From: Candidatus Methylacidiphilales bacterium
GTDB lineage: Bacteria; Verrucomicrobiota; Verrucomicrobiia; Methylacidiphilales; Verrucolacustridaceae
Direction of reading: 5' to 3'
DNA length: 64,000 nt
Assembly (NCBI GenBank): GCA_044358595.1
Contig: JBIKNP010000009.1
Location: 8,433-72,432 of the forward strand
Below the pieces are notes generated by a model that was not told the origin of the DNA, ran no database searches, and saw only the letters and a program-made list of their open reading frames with translations. Positions within the stretch are counted from its first letter, which is position 1, and each line of letters starts with the position of its first letter. Below, piece after piece: positions 45,710 to 64,000 of the stretch. A program made the position numbers and the translations under genes.

Positions 45710-45761
45710 GATTGGGGTCTAATCTAAAAATACACTAGTAAACCGAGGGTATACCTTTGTC

Positions 45762-46141: not shown

Positions 46142-47074
46142 TTATTTACCCGATTCACCAAGCGTCTTGAGCTGACGATCCGTCACGAGCCAAACGAGGC
46201 CGTTCTTTTTGGCTAATTCCTTAGACAGTGCCTGCCGCTCCGGCGTCTTTGGATATTCGATGAGCAGCACGGGCTTCTTTGCCCAAGCCAATGTCTTTAA
46301 ATGGCCGAGGATTTCATCCGTGTGCGAGGCGGGCTGGAGTTTCTTTCCATTGGTGAAAAGATCCTCGATACCTTGGGCGCTGATGACCTCAACGAAGTCC
46401 TTGTGGGCAACCAGTTGGGAGCCGTTTTGCGGGATGACGAGTGCCGCGGGATCTTTTGCGCGGGCGCGGGCGGTGATCGCTTTCACCCAGTCCACCATGT
46501 CGCGGCGATAGGTCTGCTTGGTCTCCGGGTTCATGCGGTCGTCCAGGTAATCGTCGGCTCCCTGCTCATATGTCTGGAAGCCATCCACAATATCCAGATA
46601 CACGCCGTCAAAACCTCGGGCCATCGCATCGTCGATCGCGGGTAGTACCAGCTTTTGCCAATCGTCGCTCCAATATTTGACCTGATAATTCCCTTTCCAC
46701 TCCGGATTCTCGATCCCGAGCCATGCTGGTGCGGCGGCGGTCCGCTTGCCATTGCTGACCCACTCGGACTGCCAATAGGAACGGTAATCCTCTGCTTCGC
46801 CGATGGAGAGATATGCGACCACTTTTCGCCCCGCTTTGCCACTGCGGATTGCGTCGAGGTCCGCTTGCTCCCACGGCGTGTCGCCAGCGAAGGTCGCGTC
46901 GAGCACGATCCAATCGCGTCCGCTTTCCTTGAGTTTTGCAACCACCGCAGGTTTTGTTTTAGCGAAAGAATCGGCCTGCAGGATGTAGGCAAACGAGACA
47001 GGGTTTGATTCCGCGCACGCAAAGTGTGACAGCATGAAACTCAGAACGGCGGCACGGAAGGGGAGAAAATTCAT
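46142..47074 (-). CDS. secreted GH114-like (TM1410/MJ1477-type) endo-alpha-1,4-polygalactosaminidase
   Basis: Signal peptide; AYLSIGEAEDYRSYW, NPEWKGNYQVKYW, GFDGVYLDIVD, LIPQNG-like VIPQNG, EDLF. Confidence 0.78.
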   Translation of the reverse strand: MNFLPFRAAVLSFMLSHFACAESNPVSFAYILQADSFAKTKPAVVAKLKESGRDWIVLDATFAGDTPWEQADLDAIRSGKAGRKVVAYLSIGEAEDYRSYWQSEWVSNGKRTAAAPAWLGIENPEWKGNYQVKYWSDDWQKLVLPAIDDAMARGFDGVYLDIVDGFQTYEQGADDYLDDRMNPETKQTYRRDMVDWVKAITARARAKDPAALVIPQNGSQLVAHKDFVEVISAQGIEDLFTNGKKLQPASHTDEILGHLKTLAWAKKPVLLIEYPKTPERQALSKELAKKNGLVWLVTDRQLKTLGESGK

Positions 47075-47130
47075 TGGAGGCCTTCAATGAACGGCTGGCT
47101 CAGCAGCGCAGGGAGCGTGAGCACTATGGA

Positions 47131-48279
47131 TCATTCCCCGATGGAATGGCTTACGCTGAATTGGTAGATCGTCCGGGTCTGGTAGGTTTCACCGGGCCGG
47201 AGGATGGTGTTGGGAAATTTCGGTTGATTCGGACTGTCGGGAAAATGCTGTGTTTCTAGGCAAAGTGAACTGCGCTTCATATAGGGTTTTCCGGATTTCC
47301 CGTTGAGCGATCCATCTAGGAAATTTGCGGTGTAGAGCTGAAGTCCCGGCTGATCGGTGAAAACCTGCAGTTTTCGACCACTGGTTTTTTCATAGAGGGT
47401 CGCGGCAGGCTTCTTAACCCCTTTTTTCGGGTTCAGAACAAAAGTGTGGTCATACCCATTCCCATTGGCCAGTTGCTCGTTCGTCTGATTAATATCCCGC
47501 CCGACCGGCTTGGGGTGACGAAAGTCGAACGGTGTGCCCGCGACAGATGCAATCTTCCCGGTGGGGACAGAAGTTTTGCCAATCGGAAGTATCTCCTCAG
47601 CATCAATCATGAGTTCGTGATTAAGCACGGTGTCCGAACCTTCTCCCGCAAGATTAAAATAACTGTGATTGGATAAGTTGATCGGCGTTGGTCGGTCGGT
47701 CGTGGCTCGGTAGTCGATGATGAGCTCGTTGCCATCGGTGAGCGTATAGGTCACCCGAGCCTTGAGCGTTCCGGGGTAGCCCTCTTCTCCATCTGGAGAG
47801 GTGTAATTGAATTGAACGCCGTTCCGGAGTTGCTTTGCGTCCCACACGACCTTGTCAAAACCGGTGACCCCACCATGGTTGTGATTCGGACCGCTGTTCT
47901 TCGCGAGCACATGCTCAACACCGTCCAGGGTGAAGCGTCCATTGGCGATCCGCCCAGCGTATCGGCCGAGGGTCGCCCCGAGGTAGGGCTTCTTGACGGA
48001 TGACCGATAGGGTTCGACGGTGTTGAAGCCGAGCACGACGTCTGCCATGGCGCCGCTACGGTCTGGCACTTTGATCGAGGTGATGCGCGCGCCGTAGGAG
48101 GCCAGTCGCACCTCCATTCCGTGGGCGTTCTTTAGGTTAAATTGGGCATCTGGGTCATGGACCACCTGGGACCCCGAATGGCCTGGCATCAGGGCCGTCG
48201 AGAAGACCAGGCAGGCGAGTAAACATACTTGGCGTCCCGTGGGACGATGCGGAAGTTTCGGGCAGAGAAGATGGTTCAT
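47131..48279 (-). CDS. galM: aldose 1-epimerase (galactose mutarotase), probably exported
   Basis: GRYAGRIANGRF, HNHGG, GEEGYPG, NLSNHSYFNL, QLYTANFL, CLETQHFPDSPN; hydrophobic N-terminal extension. Confidence 0.95.
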   Translation of the reverse strand: MNHLLCPKLPHRPTGRQVCLLACLVFSTALMPGHSGSQVVHDPDAQFNLKNAHGMEVRLASYGARITSIKVPDRSGAMADVVLGFNTVEPYRSSVKKPYLGATLGRYAGRIANGRFTLDGVEHVLAKNSGPNHNHGGVTGFDKVVWDAKQLRNGVQFNYTSPDGEEGYPGTLKARVTYTLTDGNELIIDYRATTDRPTPINLSNHSYFNLAGEGSDTVLNHELMIDAEEILPIGKTSVPTGKIASVAGTPFDFRHPKPVGRDINQTNEQLANGNGYDHTFVLNPKKGVKKPAATLYEKTSGRKLQVFTDQPGLQLYTANFLDGSLNGKSGKPYMKRSSLCLETQHFPDSPNQPKFPNTILRPGETYQTRTIYQFSVSHSIGE

Positions 48280-48313
48280 GGGGGCAGGGGAGGCGACTGA
48301 TTGCCCCTAGATA

Positions 48314-48340
48314 TTCGCCACTTCAACCGGTTTTATGACG
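48314..48340 (-). promoter_or_regulatory. candidate ECF promoter for galM/GH114
   Basis: CGTCATAA-N13-GGCGAA on the minus strand; exact first box, 4/6 match in second box. Confidence 0.45.
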
Positions 48341-48457
48341 GATCGTTTCAAAGGCGTCGAAGTGCTCCTGACTTGAAAGGAAAAGAGTGCAGGAGTAAGG
48401 CTGACACTTCTTGTCGATGAATGATTTACACGTATGTTGAGTAGGTCTCTGGTGCTC

Positions 48458-48484
48458 CGTCATAACTTGTGAGGTTCAGCTGAA
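48458..48484 (+). promoter_or_regulatory. candidate autoregulatory ECF promoter
   Basis: CGTCATAA-N13-GCTGAA ending 6 nt before the sigma ATG (48491), no SD; consistent with a leaderless mRNA. Confidence 0.65.
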
Positions 48485-48490
48485 GACTCT

Positions 48491-49033
48491 ATGGAGAATA
48501 ATATAACCGATGCAAGTGGCCCGACGCCCGAGTTCGTCCAGCTCTTGACGGCATCGCAAAGCGCTTTGTACGCCTTCATCGTGTCGCTTTTGGGTGGAGT
48601 GAACGACGCCCACGACGTGCTTCAAGAAGCAAACATGAAACTATGTCGGAAATGTGCCGAGTATGATCCGAACCAGCCTTTCCTGCGCTGGGCCTACGCA
48701 TTTGCCCGTTTTGAGGTCATGGCGTGCCGGAAGCGCAACCAGCGGTCGCGCTTGGTTCTGGACGATGCCTTGTTGGCTACCTTTGCCGACGAACTCGAGG
48801 GAACCTCCGAAGACGCGGATCAGCGGTTGAAAGTGCTGGAAACCTGCATGGAGCGCATGACCCCTCGGCAGCGCGAACTCATCGCTGCGCGTTACGGTCG
48901 GGGTGAGGCGGTGCAGGATATCGCGAGCCGTCTTTCCTCATCGGAGAATGCGATGGCTGCCCTCTTTTACCGGTTGCGCAAAATGCTGGCCGACTGCGTG
49001 CAGTCAGTGATCGGTAACAAGGTGAGGGCATGA
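48491..49033 (+). CDS. ECF RNA polymerase sigma-70 factor (Planctomycete/Verrucomicrobia type)
   Basis: FVQLLTASQSALYAFIVSLL, DAHDVLQEANM, FLRWAYAFARFEV, region 4 LIAARY..LFYRLRKMLADCV. Confidence 0.93.
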   Translation: MENNITDASGPTPEFVQLLTASQSALYAFIVSLLGGVNDAHDVLQEANMKLCRKCAEYDPNQPFLRWAYAFARFEVMACRKRNQRSRLVLDDALLATFADELEGTSEDADQRLKVLETCMERMTPRQRELIAARYGRGEAVQDIASRLSSSENAMAALFYRLRKMLADCVQSVIGNKVRA

Positions 49034-50424
49034 GTAAGGAGTCATTCGAGCACCTGTGCCAGGCAGTCCTGGAGGGCACGGCCGACGAGGTGCAACTCGA
49101 ACAGTTCCGCGCGCACTTGCGCGCCGATGCGGTGCAGCGCAAGGCTTACCTCGACCAGACACAGATGCATGCCCTGCTTACTTGGCAACAGGGGCGCGCG
49201 GCCATCCCTGAGCTTGCCCTTCTCTCTCCGACGAATGTAGCTCCCCAACCGAAGATTCGCACCTTCCGCTCCCGCAGGACATCCCCCCTCCTTCAGGCGG
49301 CACTCGCAGCAGCAGTCCTTCTGATGGTGGGATTCGCCTTTTGGCAATTTGGCGATCACGGACGCAAACCCGACTCCGTGTCCGTGGCGAAAGGGGTATC
49401 GGTTGATATCCTTGCCTCGGAGGGCTCGCCGTATCAGGTGGGTGAGCGGGTGGTGCTGGAGAAATTGCGGATGGATAGGGGTTCTTTACGGTTCCGAATC
49501 TCCTCCGGGGCGGTGGTGGACCTAGAAGGTCCCGTGATCTTGGAATTTGTGAATCCGATGCGCTTGCGGCTGTTGCTGGGCAACGTCACCATCGATGTGG
49601 GTTCGGAAGCCAAGGGGTTTGTGCTCGATACAGCGAGCGCCCTCTTGATGGATATTGGTACGCGCTTCGGGGCTTCCGTGGGGAATGACGGCAGCACCGA
49701 TGTTCTGGTGCTTGAAGGTGAGGTTGAAGTTTACCGGGCTGGGGAACTACCTACACAGAAAAGCCGACTCGCGAGTCTTTATGAGGGGGAGGCGGCGCGG
49801 ATGGCGAATCGGGAAGCTAAAATCCAGCGCTTGCAAGCGTTGGCTTTACAGGGTGATCGCTTGGCGATTCGGGGCTTGAACGCCCCTGATTCGGAGGTGA
49901 TCACGGGTGTCACGGACAATATCAAGAAAGCAAACTTTTACCGGTGCTATACGATCACACCGGGTGGTATGGGGGAGGGTGCGCTGGCTTCCCTCGTTCA
50001 TCGCGGGCACCGCAACCTCACTTGGCGCGCCATGCCCGACCAGCTTTTCCCGGCAGAATTGGAAGGAGCCGATGTGATCGGGACCTTTCAACGTCAATCG
50101 ATCCACCAACCACTGCCCGACATTAATCTCGAACTGTCCCGTCCCTGTGCGGTTTACGTTTTATTCGATAGTCGGGCGGAGCCGCCCGAGTGGTTGCGGC
50201 AGGGCTTTCGGGACACTGGGTTACGCTTGCGTAGTGGTCCGTGGTGGCCGGACCTGTTTGAAACGAAAAAGCTTATGCCGGATGCGAATGGTGAGCTCTA
50301 TGTCGTGCATTCTGTCTGGCGCAAGGACGTGCCGGGCTCTGCCACGGTGACACTCGGTGCGCCTACAATTGTAAGCGAGAAATATCGCTACGCCATGTAT
50401 GGCATTGCCGTGAAGCCGCTCTAA
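49030..50424 (+). CDS. FecR-like transmembrane anti-sigma factor with extracytoplasmic sensor domain
   Basis: ATGA overlap with sigma; N-terminal helical anti-sigma domain, TM LLQAALAAAVLLMVGFAFW, FecR core SGAVVDLEGP..DIGTRFG..VLEGEVEV, extra C-terminal domain. Confidence 0.88.
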   Translation: MSKESFEHLCQAVLEGTADEVQLEQFRAHLRADAVQRKAYLDQTQMHALLTWQQGRAAIPELALLSPTNVAPQPKIRTFRSRRTSPLLQAALAAAVLLMVGFAFWQFGDHGRKPDSVSVAKGVSVDILASEGSPYQVGERVVLEKLRMDRGSLRFRISSGAVVDLEGPVILEFVNPMRLRLLLGNVTIDVGSEAKGFVLDTASALLMDIGTRFGASVGNDGSTDVLVLEGEVEVYRAGELPTQKSRLASLYEGEAARMANREAKIQRLQALALQGDRLAIRGLNAPDSEVITGVTDNIKKANFYRCYTITPGGMGEGALASLVHRGHRNLTWRAMPDQLFPAELEGADVIGTFQRQSIHQPLPDINLELSRPCAVYVLFDSRAEPPEWLRQGFRDTGLRLRSGPWWPDLFETKKLMPDANGELYVVHSVWRKDVPGSATVTLGAPTIVSEKYRYAMYGIAVKPL

Positions 50425-50511
50425 TCATCAGTGGGTTTTTTTGGGGTTAGCCCCTTGGGGCTAGGTGGCTGAGGGGTCGCCCTAGGGGGCAGGGGATGGA
50501 GGCACTTTTTT

Positions 50512-50537
50512 CGTCATAAACCGCTCCTGTGGCTGAA
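50512..50537 (+). promoter_or_regulatory. candidate ECF promoter for the PEP-CTERM gene
   Basis: CGTCATAA-N12-GCTGAA. Confidence 0.65.
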
Positions 50538-50598
50538 AATAGTAACCTCTACGTACATTCCCCAATAAACCAAAGTAACATAAATAACAAAACTAATT

Positions 50599-52641
50599 AT
50601 GAATTTAAAAAATTATAGCCAAGTTCATCGCCTCACAGCGATCGCATTCATCCTCGCGCTTGCTCTAGTCCCGACCGCTTCTGCCGCTGACGGCACATGG
50701 ACCGGTGGCACTTCGGTTACATGGGCGACTGCACAAAACTGGTCTGGCTCTATCGTTCCCGGAGGCGCCGCCGCGAATTCTGACTTAGCAACCTTCAATT
50801 CCGGTGCTTACTCGTTCGCACCGACTGCAGTGGACAATTATTTTATCGGTGGCTTGATTTTCGGCAGCTCCAGCGGCGCCATTACGATCACGACGGGGGC
50901 CGGAAACAATCGCCTGAACGTAGGGTCCGGCGGGATTCAGGTGGATGATAGTTCGGGCGCGGTGTCCATCGGGGCTTCAGGTGTCACTACGCAGGGGGCA
51001 AGCATCATCGCCAATCAGAACTGGGCCAACAATTCGAGCAGTCTGCTGACAGTCAATCGTGTGTCGGTCGATAATAGCTCGTCAGCAGGCACCTACACAC
51101 TGACGATTAATGGATCAGGGTCCGGCGGGGTGAATTTGAATACCATCGGTGACGTAAACGGTGGGGCCGACCCCACGCGCTTGTTCGCCTTGCAAATCAA
51201 CTCGACTGGTGGAAATACCACGATCTCCACGGGCAACAATTTTACCGGTGGCACCACGCTGACCCAAGGCAACCTGCTGCTCGGTGCCAACACCGCACTA
51301 GGAACAGGCATCCTCGCCCTCAACGGCGGCAAGATTTCCTCCAGTACAACTGGTGCTCAGGGCCCTGCCAACAACACCACCATCGGCGGTAACGTCGCCC
51401 TTGGCGACGCGGTAAATAACGGCAAGCTGACTTTTAGCGGAACCATGGGCCTCGGCGGAGACAGCCGCACACTCACCACGGATTCCTCGGTGGAATTTAG
51501 CGGCGTGGTCAGCAACGGTGGAATCACCAAGCAAGGCGCAAGCACGCTGACTTTCCTCGGTGCCAGCGCCAACACCTACACCGGCACCACCACCGTCAAC
51601 CACGGAACCTTGGTTCTAGCAAAGACAGCCGGCGTGAACGCCATCGCGGGTGGCCTCACGATCGGGGATGGGACGAATAGCGACACGGTCAATCTCGGAG
51701 CCAGTGATCAGATTGCCGATACCGTTGTCGTCAACATGATTGGCACCGCAAGCGGGCAACGAGGAAACTTCCAACTCCTTGGATTCAACGAGACGATTGG
51801 CGGCTTGAGTGGTGGCGGCCAAGTTCAAAACGCGAGTTCAACCGCCGACAGCGTTCTCACGCTCAATGTTGCCAACGCCACGACGCAGACTTCCAGCGCT
51901 GTGCTTCGCAATACCGGCGGAAGCACGACCGGCAGCCTTTCCATCGTCAAAACGGGCGGCGGCACCCAGATCCTCGGCGGTAACATGACCTACACCGGCG
52001 TCACTAGCATCAACCAAGGTACATTGGCGGTGACCGGATCCCTCTTGAATACTGGAACCGTGTTGGTGAACAACGGAGGTAGCTTAAGTGGATCGGGATC
52101 GGTGGGTGCGGTCACGCTCGCCAGCGGTTCAGTCCTAAGGCCTGGGAACAGTCCTGGGACCTTGACGGCCGCTTCCTCTATTTGGCAGGCGGGGTCGACC
52201 TACAGTTGGGAGATCGACAATGCGACTGGATTGGCCGGAACGAACTGGGATGTGTTCTCAGTGACTGGGGCGTTGGATATGAGTGCTCTTAGTAGTTCCA
52301 GTGCCAGTACGAAAATGAACTTGGTTTTGAATAGTCTTTCGCTGGCCAGCTTCGATACTTCCCCAACATACACTTGGGTTATCGCCAAGGCGGCTTCCTT
52401 GGGTGGAATCAGTGACGGGGTCCAAGACTTAACAGGTTTGTTTAATATAGATACGGCCAACTTTAATGGTGGCTTACCAGCCAATCTGCCGACGGGTGGA
52501 TTTCAGGTTGTCACAGGGACAGAGGGCAGCCTGCGTACTCTCAACCTGATGGCCATTCCTGAGCCCTCTACCGGCACCTTACTAGGCTTTGGCTTGGGTG
52601 GGTTGGTGTTGACTCGGTTACTGCGTCGGAAGCAGAGCTGA
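50599..52641 (+). CDS. PEP-CTERM surface protein with autotransporter-associated beta-strand repeats
   Basis: Signal peptide; NNFTGGTTLTQGNL, ITKQGASTLTF..NTYTGTTTVNHGTL, IVKTGGGTQILGGNMTYTG; C-terminal AIPEPSTGTLLGFGLGGLVLTRLLRRK. Confidence 0.92.
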   Translation: MNLKNYSQVHRLTAIAFILALALVPTASAADGTWTGGTSVTWATAQNWSGSIVPGGAAANSDLATFNSGAYSFAPTAVDNYFIGGLIFGSSSGAITITTGAGNNRLNVGSGGIQVDDSSGAVSIGASGVTTQGASIIANQNWANNSSSLLTVNRVSVDNSSSAGTYTLTINGSGSGGVNLNTIGDVNGGADPTRLFALQINSTGGNTTISTGNNFTGGTTLTQGNLLLGANTALGTGILALNGGKISSSTTGAQGPANNTTIGGNVALGDAVNNGKLTFSGTMGLGGDSRTLTTDSSVEFSGVVSNGGITKQGASTLTFLGASANTYTGTTTVNHGTLVLAKTAGVNAIAGGLTIGDGTNSDTVNLGASDQIADTVVVNMIGTASGQRGNFQLLGFNETIGGLSGGGQVQNASSTADSVLTLNVANATTQTSSAVLRNTGGSTTGSLSIVKTGGGTQILGGNMTYTGVTSINQGTLAVTGSLLNTGTVLVNNGGSLSGSGSVGAVTLASGSVLRPGNSPGTLTAASSIWQAGSTYSWEIDNATGLAGTNWDVFSVTGALDMSALSSSSASTKMNLVLNSLSLASFDTSPTYTWVIAKAASLGGISDGVQDLTGLFNIDTANFNGGLPANLPTGGFQVVTGTEGSLRTLNLMAIPEPSTGTLLGFGLGGLVLTRLLRRKQS

Positions 52642-52790
52642 ACCGACCGCACGTAAAAGATATCTGGAAGGGACTACGCTTCGGTGTGGTTTGGAGAGCC
52701 ACTTACGCGCGAATCCTAACCTCGGCGGAGACATTTTCACACTGACAAGGACGGGGAAGGGGGTTGTATGGCGAGGGTGTGAACTTTTCC

Positions 52791-52816
52791 CGTCATAATC
52801 TGCACTTTCGGCTGAA
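52791..52816 (+). promoter_or_regulatory. candidate ECF promoter for the pilin-like/glycosidase unit
   Basis: CGTCATAA-N12-GCTGAA. Confidence 0.65.
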
Positions 52817-52916
52817 AGTTAGCTTAGAGTTTTTGCTACCTGCTGATGCTAGGTGACTCACTCTAGATCCCATCAAAAGACCCAAACAGTATATTATCGA
52901 AAAAACAGATTTCTCT

Positions 52917-53183
52917 ATGCCAAGCAAAAGACGACTTTCAGATGCTTTCACTCTCGTCGAATTGCCCGTTGTTATAGCGATTATTGGTCTGCTAGCTGGC
53001 CTCGTCGTTCCTGTCATGGGTAAGGCCCGTGAATCGTCAGGCGACTGGGCCAAATGCATGTCTAACATGCGTCAAATTAGCTCCGTCTATCAAAAAGACG
53101 TGGAAATTTACAAAAAGCTGAGCTGTTCAAAAGCATTGGTCGCCCTAGGTGACAGTAAGGGGTCGGATCAGAATGCGGAATGA
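52917..53183 (+). pseudogene. truncated prepilin-type N-terminal cleavage/methylation protein (DUF1559/H-X9-DG-like), probably decayed
   Basis: DAFTLVELPVVIAIIGLLAGLVVPVMGKARES..CMSNMRQI; Pro in the pilin helix; only 88 aa; triple stop TGATGATAA. Confidence 0.6.
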
Positions 53184-56786: not shown

Positions 56787-56814
56787 CAACAGTAACAAAA
56801 ACTACATACAAAAT

Positions 56815-58794
56815 ATGAAAATCAATCCTATGAAAAATACCCAATTTAACTCCTCCACCATGATGAAAATGTTGAGTCTCATCGCGCTGGTGGTTGCATG
56901 CTCGTGTTCATCCGTTCAAGCCGTGCCGCCATCGATAGCCTTTGGGGTTTGGGATCGCACCTCTACCTTCGATCCAAAGGACTACCCCTTCCTGAAGGGA
57001 TTGGCGTTTAACCAAGCATGGGCGGATCTTGAAAAACAGCCGGGTGTTTTTGATTGGAGTGCTTTGGATCAGGCCATGGATTCTGCGGTTAAAAGGAACC
57101 AGTTTATTTATCTTTCCGTTAATGTGGGACCGGACTCGCCGGAGTGGATCTATACAAAGGGTGTCCCGCGTGTGGAGACACGTAACCAGACGCACGACAG
57201 CTGGCCATCTTATCCCTTCTATCCTTCGCCCGAATACAAATCGTTTTTACAAAAAATGATCACCGAATTTGCGAAACATATTCGCACTTATCCAAAAGAG
57301 AAGCAGGAGCGCATCGCTTTCATTCAGGTCAAGACTGGGTGCACCGGTGATGAGTGCGCTTACAAGGGTACTGTTGTGGAGAATAAGTATGACTTGCCCA
57401 CCAAGTCCCCCGCCTGGCGGGAGTTCCGGCTGTGGCAGTTTGATTTGTTTGTGAAGACCTTCCAGGGCGGTTCTGACCAGCCTCAGATTGCCCTCATGTT
57501 TAACAATGTGGAGCCGGATGGCGAAGAGACGGCCGAGGGTAAGAATGGTGGAAAGGGGGAGGGGAAGGGCGAGGGTGGATTTATCGAAGAGTGGAAATGG
57601 GTCACAGCCAACGCCAAGGGCGGAGTTGGTGTCAAAATTGCTGGCAGCGGACGTGGTCACCACCTGAGCGGGGAGCGAACCAAGATCGAGACATGGGAAC
57701 CCCTTCTCATCGCTTCGCAGGGCACTCCCTTGTTTGCCCGGTCTGAAATGGACCAAACTTGGCAAAAGGCCATGTATTTTGTGAATCGGCCACTCAACTT
57801 CTACTGGGGTGCCCTCACAGGTCTGCAAAACGGGCAAAGCATCTGGGATGTCAGCGCTGGCGCCATGGAAGCCTGCAAGGAACAGGGTTTTGACTACTCC
57901 TTCTATTTCTTTGATCGCTATGCAGGACAAATTGACCCGAAGACAGCTACCGATGTCTTCTGCGCTTTACACAAAGGGCTGGATGCTGCCGATACCAAGG
58001 CCTATCCCGAGGCCGAGTTCGGGGCTGCCCAGCGCAAGAACGTGGACCGTATGCTGAAAATTTGCGCTGCCTACGCCAAGTATGGGGCGGCGGTGGACGA
58101 CCAGAATGGTCTACTGCTCGGGCAAGTCCGGCAACGAGACACGCAAACGGGATTGAACGATGTGGGTTGGGATATCTGGCCAGACAACTATGGTCGCTTT
58201 CTTTATCAGATCGATTCCGACGCCACGTCGGTTCCGCTCTGGCGCGTGGGGGGGCCGATCACGCAGATGTCCTCCATCTACTCCCGCTTTGCCCGCGGCT
58301 TCGAGCACGCCTCAGGCAAAGACACTATGTTTTTCAAGCTGCACGAGGGCTTCTCCGAGGGTAATGAACCGAAGGTCATGACGATGACCGTCGTCTGGTA
58401 TGACGGGACGGCAGGCTCGACTTGGAAGTTGGATTACGACGCTGGCAAGGGGGGCATGAAGACGGCGCTGAACGTCACTGGGAAAGGTGACAAGCAGTGG
58501 CATCATGAAACGGTTACAGTCGAGGATGCCGTGCTGCGTCAGGGTGGAACCAAGGGCGCGGACTTCGCCCTAGTGAACACCGATGACAAGGACGACATCT
58601 TCAGCCTGATCGAAGTTCATCGCGGCAAACTAGAAACACCCATCCTATTGCCTCCGACGAGTTACAAGGTGCCCGACAAAGCACCGAAGGGGCCTAAAGC
58701 CGATAAGGGCGATAAGGGCGATAAGGCTGGCAAGTCTGGCAAAGAGAAAAAGGGAAAAGGGAAGAAGTCTGACGAAGACGCAACGCAGGAATAA
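56815..58794 (+). CDS. secreted putative TIM-barrel glycan-active enzyme, paralog 1, with C-terminal beta-sandwich and Lys-rich tail
   Basis: Signal peptide; WADLEKQPGVFDWSALD (GH35/42-like start), TGCTGDE, RGHHLS, SEMDQTW. Confidence 0.65.
   Translation: MKINPMKNTQFNSSTMMKMLSLIALVVACSCSSVQAVPPSIAFGVWDRTSTFDPKDYPFLKGLAFNQAWADLEKQPGVFDWSALDQAMDSAVKRNQFIYLSVNVGPDSPEWIYTKGVPRVETRNQTHDSWPSYPFYPSPEYKSFLQKMITEFAKHIRTYPKEKQERIAFIQVKTGCTGDECAYKGTVVENKYDLPTKSPAWREFRLWQFDLFVKTFQGGSDQPQIALMFNNVEPDGEETAEGKNGGKGEGKGEGGFIEEWKWVTANAKGGVGVKIAGSGRGHHLSGERTKIETWEPLLIASQGTPLFARSEMDQTWQKAMYFVNRPLNFYWGALTGLQNGQSIWDVSAGAMEACKEQGFDYSFYFFDRYAGQIDPKTATDVFCALHKGLDAADTKAYPEAEFGAAQRKNVDRMLKICAAYAKYGAAVDDQNGLLLGQVRQRDTQTGLNDVGWDIWPDNYGRFLYQIDSDATSVPLWRVGGPITQMSSIYSRFARGFEHASGKDTMFFKLHEGFSEGNEPKVMTMTVVWYDGTAGSTWKLDYDAGKGGMKTALNVTGKGDKQWHHETVTVEDAVLRQGGTKGADFALVNTDDKDDIFSLIEVHRGKLETPILLPPTSYKVPDKAPKGPKADKGDKGDKAGKSGKEKKGKGKKSDEDATQE
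58276..58631 (+). repeat. near-identical copy of 60283-60638 (3' domain of paralogs 1 and 2)
   Basis: By-eye alignment shows long identical runs with mostly third-position differences. Confidence 0.85.
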
Positions 58795-58848
58795 GCCGAT
58801 CCTGCTAGATTTGCGGTCGCAACAGATAACGACATCGCAAAAAGTTTA

Positions 58849-60753
58849 ATGAAGCCAATTGAATTCAAGACCTATACCTTCATAAGCACTCTCAGTCTTA
58901 TAGGTCTGTTGGTCGTCTGCTCGTTTGCCTTGCTTCAATCAGCGCCGCCGCCAAGCGCCTTTGGGGTGTGGGATCGGGCGGATAAATTTGACCCCAAAGA
59001 GTATCCCTTCCTCAAAGGGTTTAGTTTCGATCAGAAATGGGCCGATTTGGAAAAGCAGCCGGGAGTTTTTGATTGGAGCGGCTTGGATGAGGTTATGGAA
59101 AGAGCCACTCAGAATAAGCAGTTCGTTTATTTATCCTTGGGTGTGGGGCCCGTTGCTCCGGAATGGATTTACCAACATGGTGTGCCGAAAGTTGAGACCG
59201 ACGGTGAGAAGGATAAACACATGGATAAATGGGATGGCTATCCTTACTACTTGGCTCCCGAATACAAAACGTATTTTTTCCGCCTGATTCAGGAATTCGG
59301 AAAACATATTCGCAGTTATCCCCGCGAAAAACAGGAGCGTATTGCATTTATCCAAATCAAGACCGGATGTACCGGTGATGAAACCGCCTATAAAGGCAAG
59401 GCCATCGAGAGCAAATATGATCTGCCTCGCAGCTCTCCCGCGTGGCGAGAGTTCCGCTTGGAGACCTTCGACTTGTTTGTGAAAATCTTCGCTGGAAGTG
59501 CTGATCAGCCTAAGATTGACCTGCTATTCAACGCCATCGGACCGGTCATCGGATCGGAAGAGGACCCAGTCGAAGCCCAAGAGGGATTCGTCAAAGAGTG
59601 GGATTGGGTGATCCATCACGTCCAAGGCAGCTTTGGTATCAAGAATGGAGCTCTTTCTCGCGGGCATCATCTCTCCGGAGAACGCTCCTTGTATAACCAG
59701 TGGACACCCTACCTCCTTGATCCCAAGGGGCTGACGCTGTTCCGCCGGTCGGAGATGGATCAGACCTGGCAGAAGCCGTGGTATCAGTTGAACGTCCCAC
59801 TCAATTTTTACTGGGGCGCGATCAACGCCCTTAATGGCGGTCAGAGTGTCTGGGATGTCACCAAGAGCGCCATAGACGCGTGCAAGGAACAGGGCTTCGA
59901 CTACTCCTTCTACTTCTTTAACCGCTACGCCGGACAGATCTATCCCAAGACAGCCACCGATGCCTTCTGCGCTCTACACAAAGGATTAGATGCTGCCGAT
60001 ACCAAGGCTTATCCCGAGGCAGAGTTTGGACCTGCCCAGCGCAAGAACGAGGGTCGCATGCTGAAAATCTGCGCCGCGTACGCTAAGTATGGTGCGGCGG
60101 TCGATGACGAGGATGCACTGTTGCTGGGGCAAGTCCGCCAAAGAGACACGCAAACCGGATTCAACGACGTAGGCTGGGATATCTGGCCGGACAACTATGG
60201 CCGCTTCCTCTATCAGATCGATGCTGATGACACATCGGTTCCGCTCTGGCGTGTGGGCGGTCCGATTACTCCGACCTCTTCTATCTACTCCCGCTTTGCC
60301 CGCGGCTTCGAGCACGCCTCCGGCAAAGACACGATGTTTTTCAAACTGCACGAGGGCTTTTCCGAGGGTAACGAGCCGAAGGTCATGACGATGACCGTCG
60401 TCTGGTATGACAGGACGGCAGGCTCAACATGGAAGCTGGATTACGACGCTGGCAAGGGGGGCATGAAGACGGCGCTGAACGTTACTGGGAAAGGTGACAA
60501 GCAGTGGCATCATGAAAGGGTCACGGTGGAGGATGCGGTGCTTCGTCAGGGTGGAACCAAGGGCGCGGACTTTGCCCTCGTGAACACCGATGACAAGGAT
60601 GACATCTTCAGCCTGATTGAAGTCCATCGCGGCAAACTGGAGGCCCCGGAGGTGTCTGACATAGCGCCGGTGACACCCGAGGCGGGAAAGGCAACCAAAG
60701 CTGGCAAAGAGAAAAAGGGGAAACGAAAGAAGGCGGATGAAGAAGCAGATTAG
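58849..60753 (+). CDS. secreted putative TIM-barrel glycan-active enzyme, paralog 2
   Basis: Same motifs as paralog 1 (GVWDR, TGCTGDE, RGHHLSGE, SEMDQTW, GWDIWPDNYGRF); Lys-rich tail. Confidence 0.65.
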   Translation: MKPIEFKTYTFISTLSLIGLLVVCSFALLQSAPPPSAFGVWDRADKFDPKEYPFLKGFSFDQKWADLEKQPGVFDWSGLDEVMERATQNKQFVYLSLGVGPVAPEWIYQHGVPKVETDGEKDKHMDKWDGYPYYLAPEYKTYFFRLIQEFGKHIRSYPREKQERIAFIQIKTGCTGDETAYKGKAIESKYDLPRSSPAWREFRLETFDLFVKIFAGSADQPKIDLLFNAIGPVIGSEEDPVEAQEGFVKEWDWVIHHVQGSFGIKNGALSRGHHLSGERSLYNQWTPYLLDPKGLTLFRRSEMDQTWQKPWYQLNVPLNFYWGAINALNGGQSVWDVTKSAIDACKEQGFDYSFYFFNRYAGQIYPKTATDAFCALHKGLDAADTKAYPEAEFGPAQRKNEGRMLKICAAYAKYGAAVDDEDALLLGQVRQRDTQTGFNDVGWDIWPDNYGRFLYQIDADDTSVPLWRVGGPITPTSSIYSRFARGFEHASGKDTMFFKLHEGFSEGNEPKVMTMTVVWYDRTAGSTWKLDYDAGKGGMKTALNVTGKGDKQWHHERVTVEDAVLRQGGTKGADFALVNTDDKDDIFSLIEVHRGKLEAPEVSDIAPVTPEAGKATKAGKEKKGKRKKADEEAD

Positions 60754-60845
60754 GAAAAAGCAGTCCGATTTGAGGCTGGGTTAGCATCTTTAAAGGGCGG
60801 ACCGGGCTATGACGAGGGGGGTTGGGCTCATGTTCCTTTCGATTT

Positions 60846-60872
60846 TGTCACACAGCACATAAATTTGCTAAA
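60846..60872 (+). promoter_or_regulatory. weaker candidate ECF promoter for paralog 3
   Basis: TGTCACAC-N13-GCTAAA; same spacing, 5/8 and 5/6 matches. Confidence 0.35.
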
Positions 60873-60899
60873 TAGCGAATTGGTAGTATGTTAGACTTT

Positions 60900-63800
60900 A
60901 TGAGAAGCGCTTTTCTCCTCCTCAGCGCTTTGATGCTGGCTCCGCTATACCCGCTTCGCGCCGAGCTCGGACTGCAACGTGATGCCTATGGCGTATGGGA
61001 CCGGGCGGGAGGGCATCCTGTCGATCAATATCCCTATGTCCGGGGTCAGGAATATGCGGCGGAGTGGACGGCAATCAATCCAGCTCGGAACACCTTTGAC
61101 TGGACTGCGCTAGATAGCCTATTGCAGGTGGCCTACGATCAAAACCAGAGATTTTTCGTCAAGATCCAGCCTGTCTCTGGGACGACTATGCCGCCTTGGA
61201 TATTTGATGCGGGCGTTCCAAAAATCACCTGCCCTACGTACACCTATGGATACTATCTGGATCCTGAATTCAAAATCTACTTTGAAGAAATGGTGCAGGC
61301 GCTGGGCAAACATCTGCGCGAGGACGTTCCGGCTCATCTGGCGAATATCGTCTCTTTCGTTCGCGTAGATACCGGCGCCACGGGGGACGAAGAGCCGTAT
61401 GAAGGCTCGGACGTTCCCTTCGTTCCGCCTGAGTATCAAATTAGCGCCAACGATTGGAAGGGTTATAGGCTGTGGGCCTTCAATGTTTATGACCAGGCCT
61501 TCCAGCACGGCACGGGACCTCAAATTCCACTGCTCTTTCAAAATATCGAGGTGCCTGCCTATCAGACCGAGCAGGACTGGGTGACGGCCAATGTAACGTC
61601 CGGATTCGGTGGCAAGTATGGCGGACAAGTTCGCGGGCACCATTTGTCGGAATCCAGAAACGTGTCGGACTCGTTCAAGGCGCTTTCCATGGATACACCG
61701 TCCAAGTTTTTCTCCGTAAATGAGATGGATCAGACTTGGGAAAAACCCTATTTCCAGCTCAATCTCAAATTGGGCATGTACTGGTGCGCGGTGGAACAAC
61801 TCAACGCCGGCATGACAATATGGGATTGGAGCAGTTCGGTCATGGAGGGCGCGGCGGCCAATGACATCGTCTCTATTGCCGAGTTTTTCAACACCTGGGC
61901 GGCGGAACTCGACCCGCCAACGGCCCGAGGCGGATTCTGTATCTTTCACGAAGGACTTGCTTCCGAAGATATAGATAAGTTTCCAGAAGCAACCTATGGA
62001 TCGCCGGCAAACAGGGGCAATACCAACCGGTATACCAACATCTGCGCGGCCTATGCCAGCCAGGGGGCCAAGATGGACGATCTGAACGCGGTCACCTTGG
62101 GACAGGTGGCGCAGCGCAGGGTACAGGCTGGATTCAACGATTCCGGTTGGGGGATTTGGCCTGGGAACTATGAACGATTTATAATTCAGATGAACCCGGA
62201 CTCCACTAGTAAGGGACTCTGGCGCGTCAACGGAACTTTGACGACCAGCTCGCATCCGTATGACCGCTTCGCACGCCGTTTCGACAACGCCTCCAGCAGA
62301 AATACGATGTATTTTGACATCAATGACAAACTGCTGCCTTCAGCGGGCCAGCGGGTTAGGCTTTCCGTGGACTATCTGGACCGAGGCACCGGTCAGTTTG
62401 CCCTTCAATACGATGCCGTAGGGAATAACCAGAAAAACGCGTTCACGGTCACGAAGACTGGTAGTAATACTTGGAAGACAGCCTCGGCGATAGTCACGGA
62501 CTGGGCCTTCAGAAACGGCAGCCTAAACGGTGCTGACCTGACATTGGTTAATCTGGATACAGATGATGATATTTTTCACAAATTGGAAGTGACCAAGCTG
62601 GCCAATGTCCAAATCGGCACCGTTGGCATGGGCACGGTCAGCGCTCGCACGGACGCCGCGACCTACTCGCCGGTCGTAGGTAGCGACTTCGCCGAGAGCC
62701 AGCGCTTGGAATTGACGGTGACTCCTGCTTCGGGATGGAAATTCACCGGATGGAGCGGCGATTTGACCGGGACCAGTGCCCGCCCGTTTCTTTTCCCAAC
62801 CAAAGACTCGCGGGTCACGGCCACCTTTGCTCGGACTTCGGCTACCCCTCCGAGCAGCATACCTCTCTTCAGCAGCGATCCGATCGGCAAGACCGCCGCA
62901 CCGGTCAATGGGGTCTACTCGGGAACCCTTTCGGGAAATGCCAGCGATCCGAACGGGCAACCGTTGACTTTCTCCAAAACCTCCGGCCCCTCTTGGCTCA
63001 GCATCGCTGCCAACGGGACCCTCTCTGGAACACCGCAGCTCGCCGACCTGGGCCTAAATAGCTGGACGGTGCGGGTAAGTAGCTCCGGCGGCAGTGACAC
63101 GGCGATTCTCCTGATCGATGTCACTGCACCTGGTCCTAATCCACCCTCGGGCCTAAGCTACTCCAGCCCTCCCGTTTACACCAAGGGTACGGCGATCGCG
63201 AATCTCTCCCCTTCGAACAGTGGCGGGGGCGTGGTGAGATATGCGGTCACGCCCAAATTACCAAGCGGCTTCAGCATGAACAGCATCACCGGCATTATTA
63301 GTGGCACACCTTTGGCACCAACACCGGCGACCCCCTACAGCATCACGGCGATTAATCCCGACGGTTCGAGCACCACCTCACTCAACATCACGGTCATCGA
63401 TATAGCCCCTTCCGCACTGACCTATTCCAGCAATCCCGCAACCTATCGAATAGATCAGGCGATCACTTCGAATGTTCCCACCAACAGTGGTGGAGCCGTG
63501 GTTTCCTACGCGGTCTCGCCCGCACTACCAGCCGGGCTGGCTTTAAGCACCACCACCGGCATCATTAGCGGCACGCCGACGGCACTTTCTACCAGCGCCA
63601 ACTACACTATCACCGCCACCAACACAGGCGGCTCGACAACTGCCAAGCTGAACATTGCAGTCGAAGAAGGCGGCTACCGCAATTCCGACCTCATCACGAT
63701 CAATGACAATGCAGCGGCCTCGCCCTACCCATCCGCGATCGCGGTGCCAACAACAGCCGGAACAATCACTAAGGTCACGGTCACGATTTATGGCCTCACA

Positions 63801-64000
63801 CACGAAAGGCAAAACGATTTGGACATTCTGCTAGTCGGGCCACTGGGGCAGAAAGTGCTGTTGATGTCGGATGTTGGCGGAGGTGTGTCTGTAGCCAATG
63901 TGAATCTAACGTTCGATGATGCAGCCACAGTTTTCCTGCCGACTAGTGCGGTGTCCATTACCACCGGAACCTACAAACCCACTGATAGCGGGGCAACTTC
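60900..64000 (+). CDS. multidomain secreted paralog 3: catalytic module + B-repeat-like + three putative Ig (He_PIG-like) + proprotein convertase P-like domain; runs off window
   Basis: Not in ORF track; hand translation MRSAFLLLSALMLAPLYPLRAELGLQRDAYGVWDR..TGATGDE..RGHHLS..NEMDQTW; LTVTPASGWKFTGWSGD; GTLSGTP, GIISGTP x2; ITINDNAAASPYPS..THERQNDLDILLVGP; over 1030 codons with no stop. Confidence 0.85.
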   Translation, partial: MRSAFLLLSALMLAPLYPLRAELGLQRDAYGVWDRAGGHPVDQYPYVRGQEYAAEWTAINPARNTFDWTALDSLLQVAYDQNQRFFVKIQPVSGTTMPPWIFDAGVPKITCPTYTYGYYLDPEFKIYFEEMVQALGKHLREDVPAHLANIVSFVRVDTGATGDEEPYEGSDVPFVPPEYQISANDWKGYRLWAFNVYDQAFQHGTGPQIPLLFQNIEVPAYQTEQDWVTANVTSGFGGKYGGQVRGHHLSESRNVSDSFKALSMDTPSKFFSVNEMDQTWEKPYFQLNLKLGMYWCAVEQLNAGMTIWDWSSSVMEGAAANDIVSIAEFFNTWAAELDPPTARGGFCIFHEGLASEDIDKFPEATYGSPANRGNTNRYTNICAAYASQGAKMDDLNAVTLGQVAQRRVQAGFNDSGWGIWPGNYERFIIQMNPDSTSKGLWRVNGTLTTSSHPYDRFARRFDNASSRNTMYFDINDKLLPSAGQRVRLSVDYLDRGTGQFALQYDAVGNNQKNAFTVTKTGSNTWKTASAIVTDWAFRNGSLNGADLTLVNLDTDDDIFHKLEVTKLANVQIGTVGMGTVSARTDAATYSPVVGSDFAESQRLELTVTPASGWKFTGWSGDLTGTSARPFLFPTKDSRVTATFARTSATPPSSIPLFSSDPIGKTAAPVNGVYSGTLSGNASDPNGQPLTFSKTSGPSWLSIAANGTLSGTPQLADLGLNSWTVRVSSSGGSDTAILLIDVTAPGPNPPSGLSYSSPPVYTKGTAIANLSPSNSGGGVVRYAVTPKLPSGFSMNSITGIISGTPLAPTPATPYSITAINPDGSSTTSLNITVIDIAPSALTYSSNPATYRIDQAITSNVPTNSGGAVVSYAVSPALPAGLALSTTTGIISGTPTALSTSANYTITATNTGGSTTAKLNIAVEEGGYRNSDLITINDNAAASPYPSAIAVPTTAGTITKVTVTIYGLTHERQNDLDILLVGPLGQKVLLMSDVGGGVSVANVNLTFDDAATVFLPTSAVSITTGTYKPTDSGAT

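Follow-up and report, generated by a model that had tools for sequence, protein, structure and literature searches.

Sigma/anti-sigma pairs of the FecI/FecR kind normally require an outer-membrane receptor. The locus described here encodes such a pair among exported glycan-degrading enzymes, and the window, which is the whole stretch of 64,000 nucleotides that was analyzed, holds no TonB receptor and no sugar transporter, as the sequence-only reading had stated. How would a glycan signal be received at such a locus, and do its PEP-CTERM and pilin-like proteins take the place of SusC/D? The locus comes from a small freshwater verrucomicrobium whose nearest public relatives are labeled subdivision 6 or Methylacidiphilales, and its genome is a MAG of 2.17 Mb that is 93% complete. 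We consider it reasonably probable that one joint explanation covers the locus, namely a self-contained sulfated-galactan module under its own sigma/anti-sigma pair, with facultative surface accessories. ORF calls, Pfam/NCBIfam HMMs, and structure searches confirmed that the genes listed earlier are real, each at its position:

45668..45719, no strand: left boundary repeat, 3' half of tRNA-Arg(TCT) plus 10 nt, identical to C17:5759-5810
45827..45931, no strand: second repeat segment of ~105 nt, 90% identity to C17:5915-6018 at the right boundary
46142..47074, minus strand: exported TM1410-family glycosidase, CAZy GH191 (GH114 Pfam 5.7e-24; TIGR01370, MJ1477/TM1410 family, 186 bits, exceeding the cut-off)
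47131..48279, minus strand: aldose 1-epimerase (galactose mutarotase) with signal-like N-terminus (2.6e-99)
48458..48484, plus strand: motif site 1, CGTCATAA-N13-GCTGAA, ending 6 nt before the sigma ATG
48491..49033, plus strand: ECF sigma factor of the Rhodopirellula/Verrucomicrobium family (TIGR02989, 6e-46)
49030..50424, plus strand: FecR-type anti-sigma factor, 464 aa (FecR domain match)
50512..50537, plus strand: motif site 2, with the PEP-CTERM gene 61 nt downstream
50599..52641, plus strand: PATR autotransporter-repeat beta-helix protein with PEP-CTERM sorting signal (Pfam/NCBIfam)
52791..52816, plus strand: motif site 3, with the pilin remnant 100 nt and GH36 554 nt downstream
52917..53183, plus strand: truncated prepilin-type gene, 88 aa, with prepilin N-methylation motif
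53371..55212, plus strand: exported GH36 enzyme (match to Thermotoga TmGalA, 6e-26)
55188..56786, plus strand: uncharacterized enzyme with weak six-hairpin (alpha/alpha)6 matches only
56815..58794, plus strand: paralog A of an uncharacterized TIM-barrel family, predicted fold nearest GH35/GH42 beta-galactosidases
58849..60753, plus strand: paralog B, same TIM-barrel family as paralog A
60888..64000, plus strand: paralog C, 1393 aa, which stops 1069 bases past the window end

Several assignments were refined. The gene called GH114-like does match Pfam GH114, but its proper family is TM1410; the Pfam name is still GH114, and CAZy now uses GH191. The six-hairpin glycosidase stands on weak matches, and the enzyme is kept across loci at 67-89% identity, with multiple copies in G024. 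The paralogous secreted enzymes lie in tandem as described, but they number four rather than three: paralog C carries, behind its catalytic module, an InlB B-repeat, He_PIG Ig-like repeats, and a P-domain, and paralog D (581 aa) lies directly after it, outside the window. The structural model of the TIM-barrel paralogs was mediocre (pLDDT 61, TM ~0.3 to GH35/42). By its match to TmGalA, the GH36 enzyme is probably an alpha-galactosidase. Signal peptides were found in the GH191, GH36, and six-hairpin enzymes, the four GH35/42-like paralogs, and three sulfatases.

Beyond paralog D, the gene order continues with these three sulfatases, an SGLT-type Na+/sugar symporter, a second mutarotase, and a galactokinase, the last three on contig C17. 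Annotation past the window thus yielded the inner-membrane symporter as transporter, and no TonB receptor or SusC/D pair was found just past the window end. Contig C17 shares 127 identical bases with the end of contig C31, and this overlap is the basis of their join in this genome; a single contig of one relative matches the C31/C17 gene order. One of the two mutarotases of the module is periplasmic and the other cytoplasmic, and GalT is encoded elsewhere in the genome, outside the island. Because the symporter, the cytoplasmic mutarotase, and the galactokinase close the island, galactose would be the end product; together with the three sulfatases, they point to a sulfated, galactose-yielding glycan, a substrate that we infer from distant family resemblances. 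The earlier proposal of an alpha-galactose/galactosamine-rich polymer therefore keeps its galactose and gains sulfate, while for galactosamine the one hint is the GH191 gene, which has no motif in front.

The module, which spans from the GH191 gene to the galactokinase, is apparently a horizontally mobile island of ~31 kb for galactose-rich sulfated glycan catabolism, and the window covers its larger part. In this genome it is flanked by direct repeats of the tRNA-Arg 3' half, and 42 nt of the left repeat are identical to an intact tRNA gene at C17:c(8214-8287). Relatives carry the module between PHP and EPSP synthase; the same site in this genome (on C14) is empty, with a 20-nt gap, although a second strain in the bin could be an alternative source of the empty site. 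About 6 of 32 genomes within the genus carry the module, which comes and goes as one unit. The gene order is repeated in relatives at 74-95% anti-sigma identity; the clustering is therefore not due to chance. Enzymes were 78-92% identical in cases in which the anti-sigma factor was down to 47-74%, and G003 is a natural variant with the enzymes but without the sigma/anti-sigma pair, which indicates from gene content that the enzyme set can persist without it.

A bipartite motif, CGTCATAA-N12/13-GCTGAA (also written GTCAyAA-N12/13-GCTGAA), connects the pair with its neighbors. The 2.17 Mb of the genome contained just three strict matches, all at this locus, intergenic, and on the plus strand: one ahead of the sigma gene, one ahead of the PEP-CTERM gene, and one ahead of the pilin remnant/GH36 operon; ~0.07 matches were expected by chance (our own arithmetic, 14 fixed bases), and none of 100 window shuffles contained any. 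In G004, G005, G008, G024, the JGI contig, and Terrimicrobiaceae MAGs, the motif was found 6-19 nt before the sigma start codon and again after the anti-sigma gene, and the counterpart of site 3 in relatives lies ~43 nt upstream of GH36. No motif was found in 40 kb of G003, where the enzymes are present and the pair is missing, nor in front of the GH191/mutarotase pair, of which the aldose 1-epimerase gene is a conserved divergent neighbor of the sigma gene across many relatives. A search of the intergenic regions revealed no sigma-70-like consensus promoter. Since the motif is kept in relatives and missing where the pair is missing, the earlier claim of ECF control is supported, and site 1 is a candidate promoter for autoregulation, from which the transcript would be leaderless or nearly so.

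The predicted anti-sigma factor comprises a helical anti-sigma domain (residues 1-53), one membrane helix (86-106), a FecR beta domain (123-268), and, at about 290-464 of the model, a PVC-specific beta-sandwich. Foldseek matched the FecR domain to BDI_1681 and PupR (6ovk), and its residues G210-T211 were invariant among 31 homologues. The beta-sandwich had a sole profile match, the C-terminal module of a GH2 enzyme (PDB 6hpd; about 60 residues, E 1.5e-4), which was also its best Foldseek match. No FecR_C/STN-binding subdomain was found in the anti-sigma factor, and this unrelated domain occupies its place. Direct sensing of oligosaccharide through the C-terminal domain, as proposed earlier, is plausible on this model.

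Transmission of the signal through an outer-membrane partner encoded elsewhere appears very unlikely. The partner would be the only TonB-dependent receptor of the 93%-complete genome (on C35; its domains are CarboxypepD_reg, Plug, and barrel) or would be encoded in the unrecovered 7%, where, given this completeness, a transducer could sit. The likeness of the FecR domain to PupR and BDI_1681 fits such a partner, as do TonB-dependent carbohydrate loci in some freshwater Verrucomicrobia (PMC5615132). However, the C35 receptor lacks an STN domain, no STN match above the cut-off was found in the genome (one 824-aa ORF away from the locus gave a sub-threshold match), and the anti-sigma factor lacks the subdomain that would bind it. 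SusD was not found in the genome either, in agreement with the claim that no SusC/D-type or transducer-type TonB receptor serves this locus. Among 71 co-directional downstream neighbors at 43 loci of the anti-sigma family in PVC phyla, TonB-dependent receptors were not among the 25 most frequent families listed, a list topped by sulfatases. It is likewise highly improbable, and the least probable of the alternatives, that the motif is an unrelated regulator's operator or a repeated structural element and the pair controls something else. AAC and CGT are the common consensus of many ECF promoters; the halves of the motif are unlike these, and 12-13 nt between conserved blocks is short; the motif could be another regulator's site. 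Against this, in at least 13 loci the motif stands immediately before the sigma gene itself, a hallmark of ECF autoregulation; it strictly accompanies the pair, having been lost along with it in G003, and every copy points along its downstream genes.

The proposal that PEP-CTERM and pilin proteins substitute for SusC/D in surface capture and outer-membrane passage, with the anti-sigma factor sensing imported oligosaccharide, is not supported in that form and is unlikely. It draws on the motif before PEP-CTERM genes (G000, G005, L017, L026, L029) and before a full-length prepilin-like gene (L015/L027), on an enrichment of PEP-CTERM genes at most two genes from the pair (28 of 235 near versus 13 of 342 farther genes; odds ratio 3.4, without phylogenetic correction), on an exosortase encoded in the genome, and on the pilin 'fishing rod' role proposed for Planctomycetes (PMC12078418). 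Yet at least four relatives with an otherwise identical locus (G008, G024, the JGI contig, L024) lack both genes, as does G003, and the two are therefore facultative; the PEP-CTERM gene is a strain-variable insert, replaced in G005 by a different protein with a near-identical signal peptide. The pilin-like gene does carry the N-methylation/transmembrane segment, but at 88 aa it lacks the C-terminal part of the full-length paralogs (12 in the genome, ~190-330 aa, with a C-terminal DGH motif) and is therefore a truncated remnant. Prepilin-like genes were no more frequent beside the pair than farther off in the same loci, neither family showed signs of an outer-membrane channel or transport role, and the imported sugar is a monosaccharide, which makes a SusC-like importer unnecessary. 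PEP-CTERM/exosortase proteins are typically tied to exopolysaccharide production, and FecR-type pairs beside PEP-CTERM genes recur in Planctomycetes. These points, and the cleavage of Pel by one member of GH191, a Pel-type endo-galactosaminidase family (PMC12054363), would fit a module that recycles or remodels the exopolysaccharide matrix of the cell or a neighbor, with the pair answering to envelope or matrix state. We give this little credence: genes for glycosyltransferases or polymer export are absent from the island, whose last genes encode the sugar symporter, mutarotase, and galactokinase; at least six exported glycosidase-like enzymes are encoded along with three sulfatases; no motif precedes GH191; and only a minority of strains have the module, as an accessory island.

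In the sulfated-galactan module that we favor, the motif would be the promoter of the sigma factor, so that the pair would autoregulate and drive the operon from GH36 towards galK. The anti-sigma factor would keep sigma at the membrane until its periplasmic part senses a ligand derived from the glycan, which may be galactose or an oligosaccharide, the PVC-specific beta-sandwich substituting for the subdomain that contacts the TonB-dependent transducer in classical systems. Release of sigma would follow the usual proteolysis, for which the G-T self-cleavage motif is conserved. Exported enzymes would remove sulfate and break down the glycan outside the cytoplasm, and the symporter would bring in galactose, which after mutarotation and phosphorylation would go to GalT; the PEP-CTERM beta-helix protein and prepilin-like genes would be facultative sigma-controlled surface accessories.

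The closest signaling relative is FecI/FecR/FecA (e.g., Pseudomonas PupI/PupR/PupB), which shares an ECF sigma factor co-transcribed with a single-pass anti-sigma factor, a periplasmic FecR domain with a conserved Gly-Thr motif, and an autoregulated promoter, here predicted. Unlike that system, the locus has no TonB-dependent transducer and the genome no STN-bearing receptor, a PVC-specific beta-sandwich stands where the receptor-contacting C-terminal subdomain would be, and glycan-degrading enzymes rather than an iron importer are regulated. PULs for host glycans in Bacteroides thetaiotaomicron are under ECF sigma/anti-sigma regulation (PMC2709373); as in such Bacteroidota loci, the pair is a modular add-on beside co-regulated exported glycosidases and sulfatases for one glycan, but there is no SusC/SusD pair here, which makes signaling via a SusC-like transducer impossible, and the monosaccharide is imported by an SGLT-type inner-membrane symporter. 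The 'fishing rod' hypothesis of polysaccharide uptake in Planctomycetes, reviewed in PMC12078418, shares prepilin-type genes tied to glycan-degrading loci, with a full-length copy, the motif in front of it, directly behind the anti-sigma gene in some relatives, whereas here the pilin gene is a remnant, it is absent in close relatives, and the module has no pilus assembly genes. The CAZyme-sulfatase clusters of Verrucomicrobiota/Planctomycetota come from the same phyla and habitat and likewise combine exported glycoside hydrolases and sulfatases with inner-membrane sugar transporters; the freshwater 'CUT loci' were defined around TonB receptors in a paper that names no sigma factors (PMC5615132). 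In contrast to these published freshwater clusters, the regulator of the present island is defined, its promoter is predicted, and its boundaries are clear, and, if our reading is true, the island would represent a glycan-utilization sigma/anti-sigma pair working without the usual outer-membrane receptor.

The gene inventory of the sequence-only reading was borne out by ORF listing and HMM scans, with four corrections. The genes of the locus, and the repeats that bracket it, are listed below.

Genes and bracketing repeats of the locus. Coordinates are window positions unless a contig is named; the supporting evidence is given in brackets.
46142-47074, minus strand: exported TM1410-family glycosidase, GH191 (ORF listing and HMM scans)
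47131-48279, minus strand: aldose 1-epimerase (mutarotase) with a signal-like N-terminus (ORF listing and HMM scans)
48491-49033, plus strand: ECF sigma factor of the Rhodopirellula/Verrucomicrobium family (Sigma70_r2/r4 and TIGR02989 matches)
49030-50424, plus strand: FecR-domain anti-sigma factor, 464 aa (FecR Pfam match of 29.9 bits; cut-off 24)
50599-52641, plus strand: autotransporter-repeat protein, 680 aa, with a PEP-CTERM signal at its end (HMM scans)
52917-53183, plus strand: ORF with a prepilin N-methylation motif, 88 aa (HMM scans)
53371-55212, plus strand: GH36 enzyme (HMM scans)
55188-56786, plus strand: protein with six-hairpin matches, all weak (HMM scans)
56815-58794, 58849-60753, and 60888 onward, plus strand: paralogs A, B, and C, in tandem, with a marginal GH42 match (HMM scans)
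45668-45931 (left) and contig C17:5759-6018 (right): bracketing repeats

The sigma and anti-sigma genes shared the same orientation and overlapped by 4 nt. The gene previously called GH114-like does encode a glycosidase, but not one of GH114: its product passed the TIGR01370 cut-off (186.3 bits versus 181.25), which places it in the MJ1477/TM1410 family, and in comparisons with structures it matched TM1410 at 1.5e-29 and the Env-type GH191 structure 9ep5 at 4e-16, but Ega3 (GH114) at just 4e-3. The TM1410 family, formerly counted with GH114, was made CAZy family GH191 in 2025; activity is known for a single member, which acts on Pel, and TM1410 itself showed none with the substrates tested (PMC12054363). 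The secreted enzymes reported as three paralogs were indeed paralogous but numbered four, with paralog D lying beyond the window. The pilin-like gene retained its N-methylation motif but was not full-length. It shared only its first ~55 residues with the 12 full-length pilin paralogs of the source genome (about 190-330 aa, with a C-terminal DGH motif), and it was classed as a remnant because the C-terminal part carrying that motif is missing. A continuation of the gene in another frame was considered and dropped, the read-through similarity being weak.

Past the window (C31:8433-72432 of a 2.17-Mb, 93%-complete assembly in 43 contigs), contig C31 carried the remainder of paralog C, followed by the 581-aa paralog D and by three sulfatases, the third of which was interrupted by the contig end and continued on C17; the two contigs share 127 identical bases, at the end of C31 and the start of C17. 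After the sulfatase, C17 encoded a 642-aa sodium:solute symporter, whose best solved relatives were SGLT1/2 and the Vibrio Na+/galactose transporter, a second mutarotase without a signal peptide, and a galactokinase (galK). A GalT gene was located elsewhere in the genome. The absence of a TonB receptor or SusC/SusD pair, previously noted for the window, extended to the annotated module and its adjoining DNA; a sugar transporter, not seen in the window, was present downstream in the form of the SGLT-like symporter. Conserved synteny was found among the relatives compared: the gene order recurred, for example, uninterrupted on a relative's 567-kb metagenome contig (JGI contig; 88% anti-sigma identity).

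At both ends of the module lay an exact direct repeat of 52 nt, whose initial 42 nt correspond to the 3' half of tRNA-Arg(TCT), and, beside it, a second repeat of 105 nt with 90% identity. Because these repeats enclose exactly the genes from GH191 to galK, they define the functional unit independently. An intact tRNA-Arg(TCT) gene (C17:c(8214-8287)) was found 2.4 kb past the right repeat; no Phage_integrase match was present on C31, and the nearest on C17 was ~15 kb past the tRNA. Among 31 other genomes of the genus, the anti-sigma gene was detected in four and the GH36 gene in four, five different genomes in all. In the relatives G003, G004, and G024 and on the JGI contig, the module adjoined a PHP-domain gene, and in G003 and on the JGI contig, the only cases with the far end covered, that end abutted EPSP synthase. 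In the source genome, the PHP and EPSP synthase genes were adjacent on C14 (30354-32473), separated by a 20-nt gap, so that the site is empty here; this empty site could derive from a strain co-binned in the MAG. The DNA of the module was 87-90% identical to that of the JGI contig, except for the PEP-CTERM/pilin insert. The module is mobile, and by its tRNA 3' repeats and its alternative site in relatives it resembles a tRNA-associated integrative island, although no integrase gene lies at either end. The same locus, with 74% anti-sigma identity and the flanking genes of G024, was also present in a record labeled Aliarcobacter sp. (JBGSBI010000011.1), whose label or bin is probably wrong.

The enzyme content of the module was then considered with regard to substrate. 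The 53371-55212 product met the Melibiase Pfam cut-off (35.1 bits versus 27) and its residues 131-478 matched TmGalA (1zy9) at 6.3e-26, by which profile and structure-sequence matches it qualifies as a member of CAZy GH36. The four paralogs scored 21.7-22.2 bits with the GH42 Pfam model, at the cut-off (21) and over ~90 residues, and their best match among PDB sequences had an E value of 0.008. Foldseek, run with a pLDDT-61 model of paralog A, ranked GH35 and GH42 beta-galactosidases highest, at low TM (~0.3); the four paralogs resemble the beta-galactosidases of clan GH-A families GH35 and GH42. Paralog C (1393 aa) additionally contained He_PIG Ig-like repeats and a P-domain. The second sulfatase matched Bacteroides sulfatases best (E-89 and E-85), followed by kappa- and iota-carrageenan galactose-4-sulfatases (E-68 down to E-50). 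Taken together, these features indicate that the module frees and consumes galactose from a sulfated glycan. In place of the polymer rich in alpha-galactose and galactosamine proposed earlier, a sulfated glycan that yields galactose is the better description of the substrate, given the symporter, mutarotase, and galactokinase; the GH191 gene is the sole hint suggesting galactosamine.

A search with the paralog family (window 56815-64000; L001:1321-7386) detected 583 homologues. The best 120 of these showed 60-96% identity, belonged to Verrucomicrobiota, Planctomycetota, and Bacteroidia where an organism was named, and were annotated just as hypothetical, "beta-galactosidase", or "T9SS C-terminal target domain" proteins. 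Invariant residues included T177-G178-D179 and E311 (in an EMDQTW block), with E180 nearly invariant; the family is possibly an undescribed one of clan GH-A.

A bipartite motif, GTCAyAA-N12/13-GCTGAA, preceded the sigma gene (CGTCATAA-N13-GCTGAA, ending 6 nt from the ATG), the PEP-CTERM gene (CGTCATAA-N12-GCTGAA, 61 nt upstream), and the pilin remnant (CGTCATAA-N12-GCTGAA, 100 nt upstream). A strict search of the whole genome returned these three copies and no others, each on the coding strand, and 100 shuffles of the window yielded 0 matches. In G004, G005, G008, and G024 and on the JGI contig, the motif flanked the pair, lying ahead of the sigma gene and immediately behind the anti-sigma gene. 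When one mismatch per half was allowed, it was observed 6-19 nt from the sigma start codon in 13 loci, Terrimicrobiaceae MAGs included, as well as before GH36 genes in relatives, PEP-CTERM genes in four loci (L017, L022, L026, and L029), a full-length prepilin-like gene in L015/L027, and a gene of the paralog family in L028. Flanked by the same genes, the enzymes are also present in G003, which lacks the sigma/anti-sigma pair and paralog C, and 40 kb of this genome (C1:140000-179999; L103/L104) contained zero motif copies, even under relaxed matching. In G003, the mutarotase and GH36 genes were parted by an unrelated 339-nt AT-rich spacer.

We infer from this distribution that the motif is the promoter recognized by the ECF sigma factor. 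With such a promoter, the sigma factor would activate its own gene (positive autoregulation), whose transcript would be leaderless or nearly so, and would in addition control the operon beginning at GH36 and the PEP-CTERM gene. Classical sigma-70 promoters were considered as drivers and dropped, since no sigma-70-type consensus was found in the intergenic regions of the locus. Further motif copies within the operon were also dropped (0 strict matches; relaxed matches at background level, 82 in the genome), and relaxed matches in the distant planctomycetal loci L044, L055, L064, L090, and L100 are probably due to chance and were not used. ECF control of the locus, as originally proposed, is supported by the conservation of the motif upstream of the sigma and downstream genes and by its absence from the pair-less G003.

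The interval between the anti-sigma and GH36 genes varied among strains. In the source genome it measured ~2.9 kb and comprised the PEP-CTERM gene and the pilin remnant with a duplicated motif; in G008, G024, the JGI contig, and L024 it was a spacer of just 150-330 nt with one motif. Among more distant loci, the anti-sigma gene was followed by a 266-aa prepilin-like gene and a 1282-aa cadherin/Ig protein (L015), a 313-aa PEP-CTERM protein (L017), or a PEP-CTERM gene plus a prepilin-like gene (L029). In a tally of 72 loci, uncorrected for relatedness, positions up to two genes from the pair were enriched in PEP-CTERM genes (odds ratio 3.4, p 2e-4) but not in prepilin-like genes. The PEP-CTERM and pilin-like proteins had been proposed to stand in for SusC/SusD. 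This proposal is not supported: the genes are missing in relatives that possess the locus, the pilin is a remnant, and, because the module imports a monosaccharide, it would need no oligosaccharide importer. Being recurrent in distant loci yet missing from close relatives, the PEP-CTERM/prepilin genes are dispensable and probably sigma-controlled companions. Their products may help to capture the substrate, which would echo the pilin "fishing rod" idea of polysaccharide uptake in Planctomycetes (PMC12078418).

In G005, the gene after the anti-sigma gene (L003:2225-3547) encoded a different PATR protein with a signal peptide near-identical to that of the 50599-52641 product, the first 16 residues being the same; it looks as if one coding cassette had been exchanged for another while promoter and leader stayed in place. 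The source genome contained an exosortase, 24 PEP-CTERM genes, and 15 prepilin-type genes, 8 of the 15 lying within 7 kb of a PEP-CTERM gene. Eight pairs of a PEP-CTERM gene and a DGH-motif prepilin gene at this distance (C9, C12, C13, C17, C18, C36, C37, and C43) suggest a repeated two-part surface-protein cassette.

The AlphaFold model of the anti-sigma factor (pLDDT 73) showed an N-terminal helical domain (helices 6-53), a single long hydrophobic membrane helix (86-106), and beta structure in the remainder, divided into a FecR beta domain and a separate C-terminal beta-sandwich (290-464). A single-pass membrane protein with a cytoplasmic N-terminal anti-sigma domain is predicted from this layout. 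The FecR domain superposed on those of the Parabacteroides anti-sigma BDI_1681 and PupR, and D208, G210, T211, and F213 were invariant in 31 anti-sigma homologues, down to 28% identity. A Gly-Thr motif at which the periplasmic FecR domain cleaves itself is known from work on FoxR/FecR, and we take G210-T211 to be its putative counterpart. Residues 286-464, when compared with Pfam, matched zero families even at E <= 10. In a profile search, the sole PDB match of the C-terminal domain was 6hpd residues 883-945, the C-terminal module of a Formosa GH2 enzyme; the structure search, performed with the full-length anti-sigma model, returned the same module as the best Foldseek match. The family possessing this domain occurred in several Verrucomicrobiota orders, Pirellulales, and one Victivallales MAG. 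Literature searches returned nothing specific on 6hpd/P17_GH2, on ECF groups of planctomycetal/verrucomicrobial sigma factors, or on ECF/FecR together with verrucomicrobial glycan loci.

A TonB partner was sought at three levels. In the 93%-complete source genome, a single TonB-dependent receptor was present, on another contig, with CarboxypepD_reg, Plug, and barrel domains and without an STN domain; elsewhere in this genome the STN search gave a sub-threshold match alone, in an unrelated non-receptor ORF of 824 aa, and SusD_RagB gave zero matches. This agrees with the earlier expectation that a SusC/D- or transducer-type partner is lacking. No TonB-dependent receptor lay in or adjoining the ~31-kb module. 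Among 71 co-directional genes downstream of the anti-sigma family in 43 loci, tallied by Pfam family, sulfatases were the commonest, followed by planctomycete PSCyt/DUF1553 (beside DUF1501), GH31, GH2, GDSL esterases, and prepilin/DUF1559, and no TonB receptor family was among the 25 most frequent families listed. A phmmer search with the single receptor as query, a weak test, found none in 100 loci. Given that no TonB partner was found and that the anti-sigma C-terminal domain is distinct, transducer-independent sensing is the most economical reading. Direct sensing by the anti-sigma factor is plausible on these sequence grounds, and the sensor is probably its modeled C-terminal domain.

In several Pirellulales loci (L050, L053, L054, L078, and others), PSCyt/DUF1549/DUF1553 (~1030 aa) and DUF1501 genes were among the first two after the same anti-sigma family, in some cases with prepilin/DUF1559 a few genes on. 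A genome-wide FecR Pfam scan recovered four other ORFs (1316, 597, 579, and 1310 aa on C42, C40, C36, and C11, respectively). It overlooked the copy in the window, so such scans undercount this divergent family, and it was left out of the counting. The signal-peptide-bearing mutarotase (47131-48279) was a conserved divergent neighbor of the sigma gene in Methylacidiphilales-like and Terrimicrobiaceae loci (the window, L026, and L029-L035). It is uncommon for a periplasmic mutarotase to lie beside a sensor, and the arrangement may be relevant to the sugar anomer that is detected or taken up.

A broader reading, which we consider doubtful as a joint proposition, is that a PVC-specific beta-sandwich would serve as a periplasmic sugar sensor, the PEP-CTERM/prepilin proteins as an inducible capture layer, and the mutarotase to shape the anomeric form of the signal, with signaling free of a TonB transducer across Verrucomicrobiota, Planctomycetota, and Lentisphaerota. 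If true, this would mean that an entire ECF family links the sensing of glycans to transcription with no TonB-dependent transducer involved.

Verrucomicrobiota and Planctomycetota play an important part in the consumption of sulfated glycans from algae and microbes, and the locus bears on how polysaccharides are sensed and taken up in these phyla without SusC/D machinery. It offers a compact test case, with one sigma factor, one anti-sigma factor with a distinct putative sensor domain, a predicted promoter of 26-27 nt present three times, and a defined enzyme set with galactose as end product. Natural variants with and without the regulators, with and without the PEP-CTERM/prepilin genes, and at two insertion sites provide controls. 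The module also represents a complete glycan-utilization unit that travels as such among closely related freshwater strains, and it holds four copies of a widespread, highly conserved, uncharacterized glycosidase-like family.

Compared with known systems, the locus shares with FecR-type cell-surface signaling the adjacent ECF sigma and FecR-domain anti-sigma genes, the predicted single-pass layout, and the Gly-Thr pair, but lacks the receptor-binding subdomain (FecR_C/STN-like) and, as far as the 93%-complete genome shows, the STN-bearing TonB transducer. Bacteroidota-type PULs are characterized by adjacent SusC/SusD genes, whereas none occur in or beside the module. Minus the receptor-binding subdomain and the transducer, two defining features, the pair would work here much like the regulatory pair of cell-surface signaling systems and PULs.
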